From NCBI GenBank assembly GCA_963810935.1, contig CAWEPK010000012.1, positions 384,001 to 448,000 of the forward strand: a stretch of 64,000 nucleotides of DNA, given 5' to 3'. Made by a program: the position numbers and the translations under genes. The DNA is from an uncultured delta proteobacterium (GTDB lineage Bacteria > Desulfobacterota > Syntrophorhabdia > Syntrophorhabdales > WCHB1-27). Under the pieces are notes generated by a model that had not been told where the DNA came from, made no database searches, and was given only the letters and a program-made list of their open reading frames with translations. Below are positions 35,124 through 42,996 of the stretch, one piece after another. How positions within the stretch are numbered: the stretch's first letter is position 1; every line of letters starts with the position of its first letter.

Positions 35124-35175
35124 ATATATGAGTATAAGCCCATACGCCAGCCATTCTCAATAGATTGAGTATCGG

Positions 35176-35302
35176 GGGGCCGGGATCTTTTCGCGGCCTT
35201 CGCGCCGTTTTCTCGGCGCGCCTCCTCGACGTACTTCAACTGTACAGTCTCGTCGGGCGCCTTCGAAAAGCAACGCGAATTCCACGAAAACCTCCCGGCC
35301 CC
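35176..35302 (+). repeat. Palindromic interspersed repeat, copy E
   Basis: GGGGCCGGGATCTTTTCGCGG...CGTAC..GTAC...GAAAACCTCCCGGCCCC. Confidence 0.85.
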
Positions 35303-35480
35303 GACCCTGTAAGACCAAAATGACAATCCCTGACCGGAATCACCATTCTGCACCTAAAAAGGGGCCTGTTTCAATAATATTTTAAAATTCAATCGACAAG
35401 AATGTTGGCCTCGGATAGAATTCAAGAGGCCCTTTTCTTGGCTATTTTCGGTGTCTTTTTAATTGCACAGGGGAGCAATT

Positions 35481-36047
35481 ATGGCAGCAAAACGAATATT
35501 GACTGAGTCTGAAAAAACTAGGTTAGAATCATCCACGAAGAGATGGCTGGCGGAGTGCGAACGTTGGATGAGGCACTTCAAGGCGCTGCGGCCCGACCCA
35601 ATGGAACAAGGGTTTCCGTCCAATGTCGACAGTTTCTTAATCAGTGCTACCTATTTTATTGTCGCTGCGGGTTGCGTTTATTTACACTGTAAAAGTCTGC
35701 TTGAAGCCAAAACGGGTTCAAAACAAACGGCCGATAAGTGGCTTGCGGATCGTCTCAAAGAACGGCCTGTATTACAGGCCTTAGTCGATCGCCGCAACTG
35801 GATCAACCATGGAGCACTGTACAGAAACCCCAATTATACGCTAACGTTTGTCCAGGTGGAAGGCGTTGACAGAACGACGGCTGATCTTGTTTATGAGGCT
35901 GCCAAGAACAAAGGCTCCGTGATTTGGAACGCTGGCAATACCTTTTGCTGGATCGCAGAAGATGAGACTATTGAACATAGCGTTACTTACTGGCAGGAGA
36001 AAGTAGTATCTGAACTATCAGAGATGGTTAGGGATATTGAGCAATAA
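35481..36047 (+). CDS. Hypothetical protein (AT-richer)
   Basis: RBS GGGAG, RNWINH (Rx4H, HEPN-like). Confidence 0.65.
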   Translation: MAAKRILTESEKTRLESSTKRWLAECERWMRHFKALRPDPMEQGFPSNVDSFLISATYFIVAAGCVYLHCKSLLEAKTGSKQTADKWLADRLKERPVLQALVDRRNWINHGALYRNPNYTLTFVQVEGVDRTTADLVYEAAKNKGSVIWNAGNTFCWIAEDETIEHSVTYWQEKVVSELSEMVRDIEQ

Positions 36048-36223
36048 CTTGACTCCGATTCACAGATATTATCAGAGACTGTCATGGGGGATAGTAGGGG
36101 ACACGTCCCTGGCACACGCATCACAGCCGCCCGGAATCCGAATATTCGGTAGTGTCTCAGTTTGACGGATTGTTTTGTTGTTGATGAGTGAAGAAGGCTA
36201 CGGCCTATGTTATAATAAATATT

Positions 36224-36454
36224 ATGCCTAAAGGACCAAGGGGGCAGAAGAGACCCGCCGATGTCATAGGCAATGCCATAGTGGTTGCCAAGATTGCTAC
36301 CGGCGAGATTACTGAAGAAGCCAACGGCAAAGAGTATGCCCGCGAGGGTGGGCGGAAGGGCGGAGCACTCAGGGCTAAGAAACTATCTTCTGCCAGACGA
36401 AAAGAAATTGCTCAAAAAGCCGCCCAGGCCCGCTGGGGCAAGAAAGAAAATTAG
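36224..36454 (+). CDS. Small basic KGG-type protein, IS passenger
   Basis: MPKGPRGQKRPADV...GGRKGG..RA..LS..RR.EIAQKAA.ARW; extended -10 TGTTATAAT at 36208-36216. Confidence 0.8.
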   Translation: MPKGPRGQKRPADVIGNAIVVAKIATGEITEEANGKEYAREGGRKGGALRAKKLSSARRKEIAQKAAQARWGKKEN

Positions 36455-36599
36455 TCCCATTTCCCCGCATAAATAAACGATTTTTGCTTTCTGGAAAATT
36501 CTTAGGAAAAAAAGGACTTGCTTTTTACACTGCTTCTCATGCAGAATATATACAGTTCTGCTGTAGGGAGATAGAAAAGGTAAGGGAGGAGGTGGTTGA

Positions 36600-37205
36600 T
36601 TGCTAAACGAAGGTGACTTTACAAGGGTTATTGGGAAGTACTTCGAAGCGATTCAGGAGTGCATCGAGGCAGGGTTCAACCGCTGGTTTGCGGTACCCGC
36701 AGAGTTTAGGATCGCGGCGTCTCCACGTACAAGGGCAAATTTTATTCACGATTTCATTCGCGATGAAGCTCTGAGGCGTTTTTTGCATGTTCCAGAGATA
36801 GAGTTATTGGAAGTCCGGGGGCTGTTTTTGGTCAAGTTCGGGGAAGATGTATTATTGAGGTTCAAGAAGTTTGATAGGTATTTCCGTCCGCAAAATATCC
36901 CTACTGGTCAGACAAAATTGTTCTCACGGCAGGGAGTACAGGAATCCCTTTTTGGAGTTCCTTTTGCTACGAAGGTTATTGCCGGGTATCAAACGGATAA
37001 GGCACACGCTGAAATCCAATGGACGGGCATAACATGCCCCGAAGGAAAGCATCTACATTGGTACATTAACTTCGAAAAACCTTCCACCCAAGTTCTTCCT
37101 TTCCAGACTTATCAAGAAACAACACAAGAGTCTGGCCCCGTCGCAGAACCGAGGCCGAAGGAGAATTTGAAAAACAATGAGAAGAGAGGAGACAAAGAAA
37201 TTTAA
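36600..37205 (+). CDS. Putative toxin, RosmerTA RmrT-like partner of HTH-M78 peptidase
   Basis: LRFKKFD..NIPT.Q..GY motif pattern; overlaps the downstream peptidase gene; RBS GGAGGAGG. Confidence 0.6.
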   Translation: MLNEGDFTRVIGKYFEAIQECIEAGFNRWFAVPAEFRIAASPRTRANFIHDFIRDEALRRFLHVPEIELLEVRGLFLVKFGEDVLLRFKKFDRYFRPQNIPTGQTKLFSRQGVQESLFGVPFATKVIAGYQTDKAHAEIQWTGITCPEGKHLHWYINFEKPSTQVLPFQTYQETTQESGPVAEPRPKENLKNNEKRGDKEI

Positions 37206-38253
37206 TCCAGACATGCTGATCATGGCGCGCAAATCAAGGGGGTTAACACAAAGCGATTTAGCAACTGCTCTTGCAATGACTTCATCTCACCTATCTAAAG
37301 TTGAGGGTGGGATGACACCTTTTCCAGAATCGAAACTGGACGAATTATCGAATGCGCTCAAGTATCAGGAAGATTTCTTTTACAGGGGGGAAAGGTTCTT
37401 GGGGATAGGTCCGGCGTTTGTGTACCATAGAATGCGGCAAAGTGTTTCAAGCAAGCTAATAGAGAAGATCGAAGCACAGGTGAACGTCTACCGTATACAC
37501 ATTGAGAGGCTTCTCCGTTCCGTAGAAATCGCGGAATGCAAAATCCCTTCTTACGATTTGGATGAACTGGGGAACAATGCGACACCGGAAGACGTTGCAC
37601 GTAACATTCGTGCCTCTTGGTTTATTCCGAGTGGTCCGATAATGGACCTTGCCCAAGTCATAGAAGCTGCGGGCGGAATTGTCATTCCATATGACTTCGG
37701 TACGATGCAGATTGACGGTGTGAGCCAACGTGTTCGGCCACTTCCGCCTTTGTTCTTCATAAACAAGAATATTCCTGGCGATAGGTGGCGGTTTTCGCTG
37801 GCCCACGAACTCGGCCACATAATTCTTCACGATAGTCCACGTCACGATATGGAAAAAGAGGCTAACCGCTTTGCGGGTGAGTTTTTAATGCCCGCATGTG
37901 ACATCGGACCGTCCGTGTGTTCACTCGGCTTCGGTAAGTTATTCGATCTCAAAATGTATTGGAAATGTTCGATGCAAGCGATCATCAAACGGGCCAAAGA
38001 CATGCAAACGATATCGGAACGGACTGCGTACTATCTTTTCGCCCAACTATCTAAGGCAGGGTATAGGACCAAAGAGCCGGGCGAATTTCCACGAGAGCAA
38101 CCTACGTTATTGTCAAAGATTATTGAGGTATATCTGAACAAGCTTGGATATACAGCAGAGGAAATGTGTAACCTGTTGGCGATTTACTCCGGGGATTTTA
38201 ATACGCTTTATGCCGATACCTCAGAGAAGCGTCATTTGAGGCTGGCAGACTAA
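37177..38253 (+). CDS. XRE HTH + ImmA/IrrE (M78) Zn-metallopeptidase, RmrA-like antitoxin
   Basis: ARKSRGLTQSDLA HTH; RFSLAHELGH (HExxH); EKEANRFAGEFLMP. Confidence 0.9.
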   Translation: MRREETKKFNPDMLIMARKSRGLTQSDLATALAMTSSHLSKVEGGMTPFPESKLDELSNALKYQEDFFYRGERFLGIGPAFVYHRMRQSVSSKLIEKIEAQVNVYRIHIERLLRSVEIAECKIPSYDLDELGNNATPEDVARNIRASWFIPSGPIMDLAQVIEAAGGIVIPYDFGTMQIDGVSQRVRPLPPLFFINKNIPGDRWRFSLAHELGHIILHDSPRHDMEKEANRFAGEFLMPACDIGPSVCSLGFGKLFDLKMYWKCSMQAIIKRAKDMQTISERTAYYLFAQLSKAGYRTKEPGEFPREQPTLLSKIIEVYLNKLGYTAEEMCNLLAIYSGDFNTLYADTSEKRHLRLAD

Positions 38254-38323
38254 GGGGGCACTTATGTAAAAAAATAGGGGTAAACGACCCGGTACCCAAC
38301 CATCGCGTTTACCCCTGACCAAT

Positions 38324-38397
38324 ACCCCTGTAGCTCAAACGGACAGAGCGGCTCCCTCGAAAGACGCTGGCTCCGGGTTCGAGCCCCGGCAGGGGTA
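38324..38397 (+). ncRNA. tRNA-like RNA with mismatched anticodon stem inside the IS
   Basis: Acceptor ACCCCTG/CAGGGGT, D arm GCTC/GAGC, T arm CCGGG-TTCGAGC-CCCGG; anticodon stem GCTCC/GACGC has 2 mismatches; loop CTCGAAA; no encoded CCA. Confidence 0.75.
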
Positions 38398-38458
38398 CTC
38401 CTATATTCTATACATATTTCTCGTGAAAAAAAAGTTTTTCTTAACCTGAAAATTATGC

Positions 38459-38487
38459 TTGACACATAAGCATAAATTTCATATAAT
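38459..38487 (+). promoter_or_regulatory. Consensus sigma70 promoter of the transposase with overlapping palindrome
   Basis: TTGACA-N17-TATAAT; TTATGCTT-N7-AAGCATAA spans the -35. Confidence 0.85.
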
Positions 38488-38493
38488 AAGAAC

Positions 38494-39330
38494 ATGCACA
38501 AGCTGCCCATATCAAAGCGAGTCCAAATCCTTCAGATGCTTTGTGAAGGCGCTTCCATGCGGTCTATCTCCAGAGTCGCGGACGTATCCATAAACACGGT
38601 AACCAAGCTGCTTGTGGATGCCGGTAAAGCCTGCTCGGACTATCAGGACAAGGCCCTCCGTAACCTGCCCTGCAAGCGAATCCAGGCCGACGAAATTTGG
38701 TCGTTCTGCTATGCCAAGGAAAAGAACGTCCCCGACGACAAAAAGGGCTGGTTCGGTTATGGCGGTGTCTGGACCTGGACGGCGATAGATGCTGACAGCA
38801 AACTTATCGTTTCATGGCTGGTAGCCGACCGGGGGGCAAGGGCAGCGATGGAGTTCATAAGCGATCTGGCCGAGAGGCTTCAGAACAAGATGCAGCTTAC
38901 CACGGACGGCCACAAGGTCTATTTGAACGCGGTAGAAAGAACCTTCGGCGGCGAGATAGATTATGCGATGCTCCAGAAAATCTATGGGACGGAACCGGAA
39001 GGCGAAAAGAGATACAGCCCTGCGAAGTGCTTAGGGGCAGACAAGTCGATCATCTGTGGACGGCCCGACGAAGAGCACATATCAACAAGCTACGTCGAGC
39101 GGCATAATCTCACCATGAGGATGAACATGAGTCGGTTTACTCGCCTGACGAACGGATTTTCTAAGAAGGTCGAGAATCATTGTCATGCCCTCGCCCTCTG
39201 CTTCATGGCTTACAACTTTGTGCGGATTCACAAGACCTTGAGAGTAACCCCCGCGATGGCCGCCGGAGTGACGGACAGACTGTGGACGATGGAGGATATA
39301 GTAAATTTGATCGATGAGAATTCAAACTGA
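38494..39330 (+). CDS. IS1-family DDE transposase
   Basis: N-terminal HTH ([10 protein letters not shown]), [41 protein letters not shown]; stop codon lies in the right IR. Confidence 0.93.
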
Positions 39331-39394
39331 GACACTACCGAATATTCTTGCATAACGCCCCACAGTCATATGAAAATGAATGTTGAGTGCCGGG

Positions 39395-42685: not shown

Positions 42686-42760
42686 AGGCGCGTAGCTCAA
42701 CGGGAGAGCGCTACCTTGACACGGTAGAGGTCAGGGGTTCAACACCCCTCGTGCCTACCA
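42686..42760 (+). tRNA. tRNA-Val(GAC)
   Basis: Full cloverleaf, anticodon arm CTACC-TTGACAC-GGTAG, encoded CCA; TTGACA at 42639. Confidence 0.95.
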
Positions 42761-42883
42761 TTTTTACCCTCGGCAATTCAGTACGGGCGTTTTTTGCGCC
42801 ATGCTTCGTAATCTTCCCGACCGCAAATTCTCACATAAAAATTCTCTTGACAATCGTTATACAGTGTCATTAAAATGACCACA

Positions 42884-42996
42884 ATCTGAAAAAACAAACC
42901 ATTGGCGGCCATGGGACGTAAAGCCAAGGGGCCTCTGATATACCCTTTGCGAAGTCTTCAGACGTACGGTCGAGTGGCCCGTGGTTACCCGACTGG
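42884..42996 (+). promoter_or_regulatory. GEMM-I (c-di-GMP-I / cGAMP) riboswitch candidate
   Basis: ACAAACCAT..ATGGGACGTAAAGCCAAGGGGCC...GGCCCGTGGTTACC matches the GEMM-I pattern; TTGACA..TAAAAT promoter at 42847-42876. Confidence 0.65.

Follow-up and report, generated by a model that had tools for sequence, protein, structure and literature searches.

The window, a stretch of 64,000 nucleotides from an uncultured delta proteobacterium, contains an IS1-like transposon that carries, between a cargo operon and its transposase gene, a hairpin and a tRNA gene (Table 1). The element has the features by which the IS1 family is recognized, namely a DDE transposase, terminal inverted repeats (perfect over 18 bp, 36148-36165 and 39322-39339) and a target duplication in the 8-9 bp range (a palindrome of 8 bp, 36140-36147 and 39340-39347). 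The transposase scores 65.5 bits against the NCBIfam model transpos_IS1, under the cut-off of 100, and three of the four records of its plasmid homologues are annotated as IS1 family transposase. The repeats, the target duplication, the promoter and all four ORFs are intact, and the 14-bp inverted repeat over the transposase promoter is likely an operator. The insert 35166-39347 is absent from all three same-genus genomes searched. Its leftmost ~1 kb (35166-36139), outside the transposon and also missing in these genomes, holds an inverted repeat of 36 nt (35176-35302) and, at 35463-36047, an ORF of 194 aa that belongs to no family; this part is an older insert into which the transposon landed.

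Table 1. Coordinates of the transposon and of the features it carries (positions in the window).
Feature	Coordinates	Strand	Remarks
IS1-like cargo transposon, 3192 bp	36148..39339	+	Carries the tRNA 38324-38397; bounded by terminal inverted repeats
Small basic protein, 76 aa, common in such elements	36224..36454	+	Homologues in 27/145 related loci
Putative toxin, 201 aa, gene in RmrT position	36600..37205	+	Toxicity suggested by position only
HTH + ImmA/IrrE protease, RmrA-like antitoxin (RosmerTA type)	37177..38253	+	Pfam HTH_3, Peptidase_M78; PADLOC RmrA E 5.8e-57
Hairpin, 11-12 bp, 19-nt loop, 7-U tail; predicted intrinsic terminator	38268..38317	-	-22.6 kcal/mol on the minus strand
tRNA, Arg-type body (A20, A73, short variable loop), CGA anticodon (Ser, reads UCG)	38324..38397	+	No CCA encoded; two anticodon-stem mismatches
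Candidate antisense promoter, -10 hexamer (5/6) 38410-38405, start ~38398	38398..38427	-	-35 poor; 8/12 at best over the full match
Transposase promoter, 12/12 sigma-70 match 38459-38487, overlapped by 14-bp inverted repeat	38447..38487	+	Downstream of the tRNA; mRNA leaderless
Single-ORF IS1-like DDE transposase, 278 aa	38494..39330	+	Pfam DDE_Tnp_IS1 above cut-off

The gene of the 76-aa protein, which matches no Pfam or NCBIfam family at cut-off, is preceded by an extended -10 promoter (36208-36216) read from the sequence only. The 201-aa protein has 1085 relatives at E ≤ 0.001, and its alignment-based model reached a pLDDT of 89.6, compared with 36.5 for the single-sequence model. The best structural match of this model, NaeI (Z 6.7, rmsd 3.6 over 128 residues), hints weakly at a restriction-endonuclease-like fold, and Foldseek returned no match to it at E ≤ 0.001. 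The protein matches no family, and neither it nor 111 of its relatives match the PADLOC RmrT models. The following gene combines the HTH and ImmA protease of RmrA, with the 201-aa gene in the place of RmrT; this arrangement of an RmrA-like antitoxin and an upstream partner gene is that of RosmerTA as described in the passages of PMC10440598 drawn on here, from which the window pair departs in the missing RmrT model match. The preliminary description had tentatively linked the tRNA-like RNA to this toxin as a decoy or antitoxin RNA, a link that the related loci do not bear out. Homologues of the 201-aa gene occur in none of the 37 tRNA-bearing loci, and RmrA in 1 of these 37 compared with 10 of the 108 others, many loci extending only 1.5 kb upstream; the putative toxin, moreover, already has a protein partner resembling an antitoxin. 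The pair is separate cargo, not linked to the tRNA.

An Arg-type tRNA body with a Ser anticodon

ARAGORN calls the gene tRNA-Ser(cga) (38324-38398), and the Rfam model RF00005 scores it at 49.3 bits (gathering score 29; E 3.8e-08), with nothing but tRNA found by Rfam over the hairpin-tRNA stretch. Pairing is perfect in the acceptor stem (7 bp), the D stem (4 bp) and the T stem (5 bp); the anticodon stem (38351-38355/38363-38367) contains two mismatches, U29-C41 and C30-A40. Its loop reads C32 U33 CGA A37 A38, the variable loop measures 5 nt, and A20 and A73 lie at 38343 and 38397, respectively. The initial account of three intact arms, a doubly mismatched anticodon stem, a CGA loop, no long variable arm, A20 and no CCA was thus accurate throughout. 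The missing CCA tells little, because 14 of the 40 other host tRNAs called by ARAGORN do not encode it either.

A canonical bacterial tRNA-Ser(CGA) has a long variable arm and G73, and with 5 nt and A73 in their place the window tRNA cannot be a normal Ser tRNA because it has no long arm. The bacterial Arg identity set comprises A20, the strongest Arg determinant in E. coli, together with C35 and U/G36, and A/G73 also stands in the identity table (PMC9976931, in the parts drawn on here). The window tRNA has A20 and A73, and, if the anticodon is placed as the lengths of the arms require, G35 and A36. The alternative register, with UCG (Arg) as the anticodon, is possible only through a bulged stem with an 8-nt loop. 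For the anticodon arm, ViennaRNA favoured a 4-bp stem, a bulge and an 8-nt loop (-42.7) over the form with a 7-nt loop (-40.4), and overall a non-cloverleaf fold (-52.5) over the cloverleaf (-50.0). The closest host tRNA is tRNA-Arg(UCU) (51/74 nt), and the closest metagenome relative among the matches listed is a canonical tRNA-Arg(CCU) (59/74 nt). The acceptor/T-arm pattern goes with Arg anticodons in 110 of the 120 metagenome matches listed, from a single scan dominated by ordinary Arg tRNAs.

In the incomplete host assembly, ARAGORN found no normal-form Ser(GCU), Ser(CGA), Arg(UCG), Ile(GAU), Ala(UGC), Lys(UUU) or Leu(UAA) tRNA, and three tRNA-Sec genes. We considered, and rejected, that the window tRNA replaces a missing Ser(CGA), Ser(GCU) or Arg(UCG): the assembly is 93% complete and the gene is without Ser identity. 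That the gene is not an ordinary host tRNA-Ser, and that it is part of a mobile element, are both supported.

Mismatched tRNAs recur across related IS1-like elements

Among the first 80 homologous loci, ARAGORN called a standard tRNA directly before the transposase in 12. With the family widened by further searches and profile scans, and tRNA bodies assigned by their identity elements, tRNAs whose body and anticodon disagree were found in 38 of 146 non-redundant elements (the window and a second element of the host genome included), or 37 of the 142 with at least 400 nt upstream. The structure thus has equivalents in homologous elements. Excluded from the counts were doubtful low-score calls (L011, L005, L001, L298), duplicate loci, three near-duplicate transposases, the ordinary tRNAs L002:4905 and L013:2954, and the transposase-free sequences L247, L223 and L178; L089 was counted although its element ends were not located. 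The metagenomic L178, L223 and L247 and the viral L089 have Arg-type bodies with an 8-nt loop and CGC or GCU, and L178 has an A-tract hairpin upstream of its tRNA.

The mismatched tRNAs fall into three classes: Arg-like with a short arm; long-armed, with G73 or U73 and anticodon UAG, UAU, GUA, UUA, UGC or CGC; and Ala-like with G3-U70 and UAC. The 21 short-arm Arg-like tRNAs (20 from the 146-element set plus L241) bear a Ser anticodon in 19 cases (10 GCU, 7 ACU, 2 CGA), Thr and Ala anticodons once each and an Arg anticodon never; A20 is present in 17, A37 in all 21 and C33 in five. Such recurrent disagreement between body and anticodon, CGA included twice, is one trait of natural mistranslating tRNAs, which are also expressed, charged and misincorporate. 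The second CGA tRNA lies inside a distant element (G293), where it has a hairpin and a consensus promoter to itself; its stem is intact. Since it is identical to the window tRNA at only 43/74 nt, and the transposases are 46% identical, CGA probably arose twice. When 401 genomes of the phylum were searched by pattern, these two were the only CGA matches, viral pattern searches added no element-borne CGA tRNA, and 22 family genomes, plasmids and phages contained no close copy of the window hairpin-plus-tRNA region. The closest tRNA-bearing kin of the window on the tree have GCU or ACU anticodons, three changes away from CGA. The placement of the tRNA varies across the family: it is oriented the opposite way in L038, L065 and L089, lies 0.7-0.9 kb upstream in L031 and for the CGA tRNA of G293, and in some elements is 0.7-1.5 kb away with other DNA intervening.

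Several individual elements are worth recording. The second IS1-like element of the host genome (G000:C7:397918-397987, L130) has an odd tRNA before its transposase, Ala-like (G3-U70) and best read as UAC (Val), with a hairpin, GTA at transposase column 161 and a leader mini-ORF that begins Met-Arg-Arg. The element at L336:4343-8258 (G293:C28) carries two different mismatched tRNAs (CGA and UAC) and, judging by ORF motifs only, a likely methyltransferase-nuclease pair. Within the repeats of L038, a minus-strand tRNA (~2812-2905) combines a Ser-type long arm with a UUA anticodon, and is likely an ochre suppressor; the transposase of this element stops at TGA.

We next consider the anticodon stem. 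In 15 family tRNAs (window excluded), 11 of 75 anticodon-stem pairs are mismatched, compared with 4 of 240 pairs in the other stems (p 4e-5, a value inflated by the relatedness of the tRNAs) and 8 of 310 anticodon-stem pairs in 62 canonical Arg tRNAs. The mismatches concentrate at 27-43 and 29-41, and L002 and L031 have two each; the 30-40 mismatch of the window is unique among the 21 Arg-like tRNAs. Mutations are thus concentrated in the anticodon stem; an even spread across all arms was the pattern that the preliminary description had associated with simple decay. Weakness of the anticodon stem is characteristic of the family, whereas the anticodon itself is under constraint. Among uniform decay, a pure mimic and tuned-down decoding, this combination agrees best with the last; activity of the window copy is putative.

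We also asked whether the transposases keep, at fixed columns, the codon that matches the anticodon of the tRNA carried. All three UAG elements, which stand at three places on the tree, place CTA at 160 and 163; of 20000 random triples, 5 shared CTA at two columns. UAC elements, which form one clade, have GTA at column 161 in 9/9, against 9/93 among other Val codons; L123, one of these nine, carried no label at first, its tRNA coming to light only later. In all three UAU elements ATA stands at 163 and 180, with the same codons in clade-mates. The conserved Ser175 is AGY in 14/14 GCU/ACU elements but also in 120/132 others, hence no coupling, and TCG occupies no common column in the two CGA elements (48, 70 and 185 in the window; 126, 149 and 197 in G293). 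UCG makes up 25.5% of the Ser codons in the long ORFs of the host. A private recoding of the transposase, with AGY at Arg columns, was rejected, the window being the only case with 0/7 GCU/ACU elements checked, and CGA being unable to read AGT. The L030 transposase has CTA at 160 and 163 as in the UAG class, with no tRNA found in its locus, from which it was possibly lost. The earlier verdict that the window gene is not a decoding tRNA is unsupported by these family-level data, in which 19 of 21 Arg-like bodies read Ser and matching codons are fixed in two other classes.

The upstream hairpin and a predicted antisense RNA

The hairpin noted upstream of the tRNA is indeed present, its arms (38276-38286/38306-38316) forming 11 bp plus one extra U-G pair around a 19-nt loop. 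The fold of 38270-38405 has a z of -3.06, equalled by 0/200 shuffles. The 7-A run at 38268-38274, 5' of the hairpin, makes it a predicted terminator on the minus strand, one that a simple terminator scan does not report because the loop exceeds 8 nt. Of the element tRNAs, 30 of 31 have a strong hairpin in the 100 nt upstream, compared with 17 of 104 ordinary tRNAs of like body. The family hairpins have an A-rich 5' flank in 24/30 and a T-rich 3' flank in 2/30, and so face the minus strand.

At the opposite end, we scored minus-strand sigma-70 matches starting between -6 and +25 nt from the tRNA 3' end, with related, mostly GC-rich host tRNAs as controls. At the family threshold of at least 9/12, matches occur at 23 of 40 family tRNAs and 7 of 96 controls (at most 9 in 300 shuffles), and at 10/12 or better, 16 of 40 and 0 of 96. 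Elements that carry no tRNA have minus-strand promoters in this region too, in their case directed at divergent genes (mean best score 8.4 vs 9.2). The candidate promoter of the window occupies the usual family position and, at 8/12, falls under the family threshold. A minus-strand promoter at the tRNA 3' end together with a minus-strand terminator implies an antisense RNA. The convergent promoter and terminator characteristic of type I/VIII-like arrangements are thus found at the family level; in the window the terminator is clear and the promoter scores 8/12.

In 11 of 40 family tRNA leaders (L022, L040, L072, L117, L122, L124, L130, L292, L307, L038 and that of the L123 UAC tRNA), a start codon followed by Arg codons lies 115-144 nt upstream, and 6 of the 11 share a GC-rich motif able to pair around the hairpin. 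These leaders may constitute an attenuator or a CreT-like unit. The window leader has no Arg mini-ORF, only ATG-TAA at 38264-38269.

Interpretation, rival explanations and known systems

The window gene belongs to a recurrent cassette made up of a hairpin, a tRNA whose body and anticodon disagree, and a promoter facing back into the tRNA, and within this layout it pairs an Arg-type body with a Ser anticodon. We give about an even chance to the reading that it acts on UCG codons as a missense tRNA, in weakened form and under antisense control. The tRNA would be made as the last member of the cargo operon, then be trimmed by RNase P and supplied with CCA by the host, and might be weakly or partially charged with Arg via A20; Arg amber suppressors still insert Arg. 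It would read UCG, inserting Arg at Ser codons, or cause stalling there if uncharged. An antisense RNA of ~130 nt (~38398 to ~38268) would cover the whole tRNA, end at the hairpin and hold the tRNA at a low level. This would provide the element with a translation poison that can be controlled and might serve for addiction, for abortive defence or for curbing its own transposase, with the window copy as an attenuated version that has a weak anticodon stem and no C35. Against this reading stand the CGA anticodon, without C35 and U/G36, both Arg determinants, as well as the two adjacent stem mismatches, the ViennaRNA preference for a non-cloverleaf fold and the 8/12 antisense promoter.

The main rival accepts a functional family and sees decay in the window copy, whose cassette would be dead or close to it within an element undergoing inactivation; we regard this as unlikely on balance, with perhaps one chance in four. 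It would account for the two anticodon-stem mismatches, one of them at a position intact in the other 20 Arg-like tRNAs, for the degenerate antisense -35, and for kin on the tree that have GCU or ACU. Transposase position 213, moreover, is Ser (AGT, 39130-39132) in a column with Arg in 144, Lys in 1 and Ser in 1 of 146 sequences, and because CGA cannot read AGT, this R213S change is a possible sign of decay. However, the remaining 16 stem pairs are intact, as are U33 and A37, and the three changes from GCU/ACU to CGA reach a loop independently seen in G293. Two mismatches also occur in two other family tRNAs, 18 single deviations are found over 40 near-invariant columns in 110 transposases, and the element itself retains its repeats, target duplication, promoter and four ORFs.

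A non-decoding tRNA mimic, serving either as an RNase P/Z signal that ends the cargo transcript or as a decoy for synthetases or tRNA-targeting toxins, is improbable. The perfect upper half of the tRNA, the family-wide tolerance of anticodon-stem mismatches and the position between cargo operon and transposase would suit such a role, and some allo-tRNAs, namely certain allo-tRNA(UAU) species, did not translate in the tests of Mukai et al. (PMC5389517, in the passages drawn on here). A mimic would leave unexplained why anticodons are constrained and, in other classes, track transposase codons, and the tRNA has no tie to the adjoining toxin pair. The insulation of the transposase from read-through, proposed at the outset, is at odds with the transposase's own 12/12 promoter downstream of the tRNA and with the family tRNAs that are reversed or lie at a distance.

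We think it more improbable still that the active RNA is the one from the minus strand, an anti-tRNA binding host tRNA-Arg, for which the plus-strand tRNA shape would be a template or sink. Promoter and terminator both belong to the minus strand, and the same minus-strand promoter region is directed at cargo genes where elements have no tRNA; yet the closest host tRNA matches at only 51/74 nt, the plus strand keeps tRNA-specific invariants and compensatory pairs, and in several elements the tRNA has a consensus promoter of its own on the sense strand. Least probable is the conformational switch of the preliminary description, in which hairpin and acceptor stem exchange partners: the shared sequence is real and unusual (8 nt, 38310-38317 = 38323-38330, a length that only 2 of 506 cross-pairings between the leaders and acceptors of other elements reach), but the swapped folds (-39.5 and -42.4 vs -52.5 kcal/mol) lie 10-13 kcal/mol uphill with pair probabilities <1e-5, and the sharing is not conserved (family mean 4.7 nt vs 4.5 nt in cross-pairs; permutation p = 0.10), so that the switch was rejected.

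The cassette, read as an antisense-controlled missense tRNA, invites comparison with type I and RNA-toxin (CreTA, type VIII) systems, in which a small RNA holds down a harmful RNA or its message. Here, by contrast, the proposed toxin would be the tRNA itself and the antitoxin a fully overlapping cis-antisense RNA, toxicity and neutralisation both being putative. CreT acts on tRNA-Arg through tandem AGA codons; the Arg-codon leaders of 11/40 family tRNAs recall its mini-ORF, which the window is without. The carrier, for its part, presumably resembles the ISMhu11-like elements of the IS1 family that have passenger genes, with which it shares a single-ORF IS1-like transposase, terminal repeats, the 8-bp duplication and cargo. 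Literature searches on IS1-family passenger elements did not turn up the tRNA cassette, and no title describing an IS-borne, antisense-controlled missense tRNA was found in a literature coverage that leaves out most subscription papers and supplementary figures.

Natural tRNAs with a mismatched body and anticodon are already known as allo-tRNAs and tRNA-ProX; they mistranslate and are toxic in E. coli, and the passages of PMC5389517 and PMC10404621 drawn on here leave host purpose and control open. In allo-tRNAs (Mukai et al., PMC5389517; review PMC7609411; both drawn on in part), body and anticodon disagree as in the window tRNA. They lie near toxin-antitoxin genes and a transposon-related ORF, some have stem-destabilising changes, and two that put Ser at Leu codons killed E. 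coli (PMC5389517, same passages). Allo-tRNAs have an 8/4 or 9/3 branch, a long variable arm and mostly Ser identity, whereas the window tRNA, being 7/5, short-armed and Arg-type, falls outside their definition (PMC5389517). The word 'antisense' is absent from the main text of that paper, and 'transpos', 'IS1' and the window acceptor motif were not found in the text of its supplement, figures excluded. The tRNA-ProX of Streptomyces and Kitasatospora (PMC10404621, PMC11415595, passages drawn on here) is an ordinary 7/5 tRNA with a foreign anticodon, like the window tRNA, and some copies have an unusual position 33, as do the 5/21 Arg-like element tRNAs with C33. It has Pro identity and a dedicated ProRSx encoded alongside, in contrast to the Arg-type window tRNA, whose element has no synthetase gene among its four ORFs. 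'Transpos', 'mobile' and 'antisense' are absent from the portion of PMC10404621 covered.

More broadly, IS1-like transposons may spread a class of toxin-antitoxin systems with a mistranslating tRNA as toxin (Arg at Ser, Ser at Leu/Ile/Tyr, Ala at Val codons), a cis-antisense RNA as antitoxin and the target codon at fixed transposase sites as feedback, the window holding a form that reads UCG, reached by convergence and damped by the weakness of its anticodon stem; we offer this proposal tentatively, giving it somewhat less than one chance in three. Within this one transposon group, about one sampled element in four carries a mismatched tRNA, and the promoter-terminator cassette predicts a mode by which harmful tRNAs would be silenced. 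The purpose of carrying a harmful tRNA is testable with a 200-bp fragment in E. coli, and the element tRNAs would represent natural Ser-to-Arg tRNAs of graded strength. As they get annotated as ordinary tRNA-Ser, annotation calls for caution.

Elsewhere in the window, a weak match to the c-di-GMP-I riboswitch (42883-42992; 29.2 bits, under the gathering score of 35) adjoins tRNA-Val(GAC) (42686-42760) and precedes the gene of a secreted-looking protein of 237 aa.
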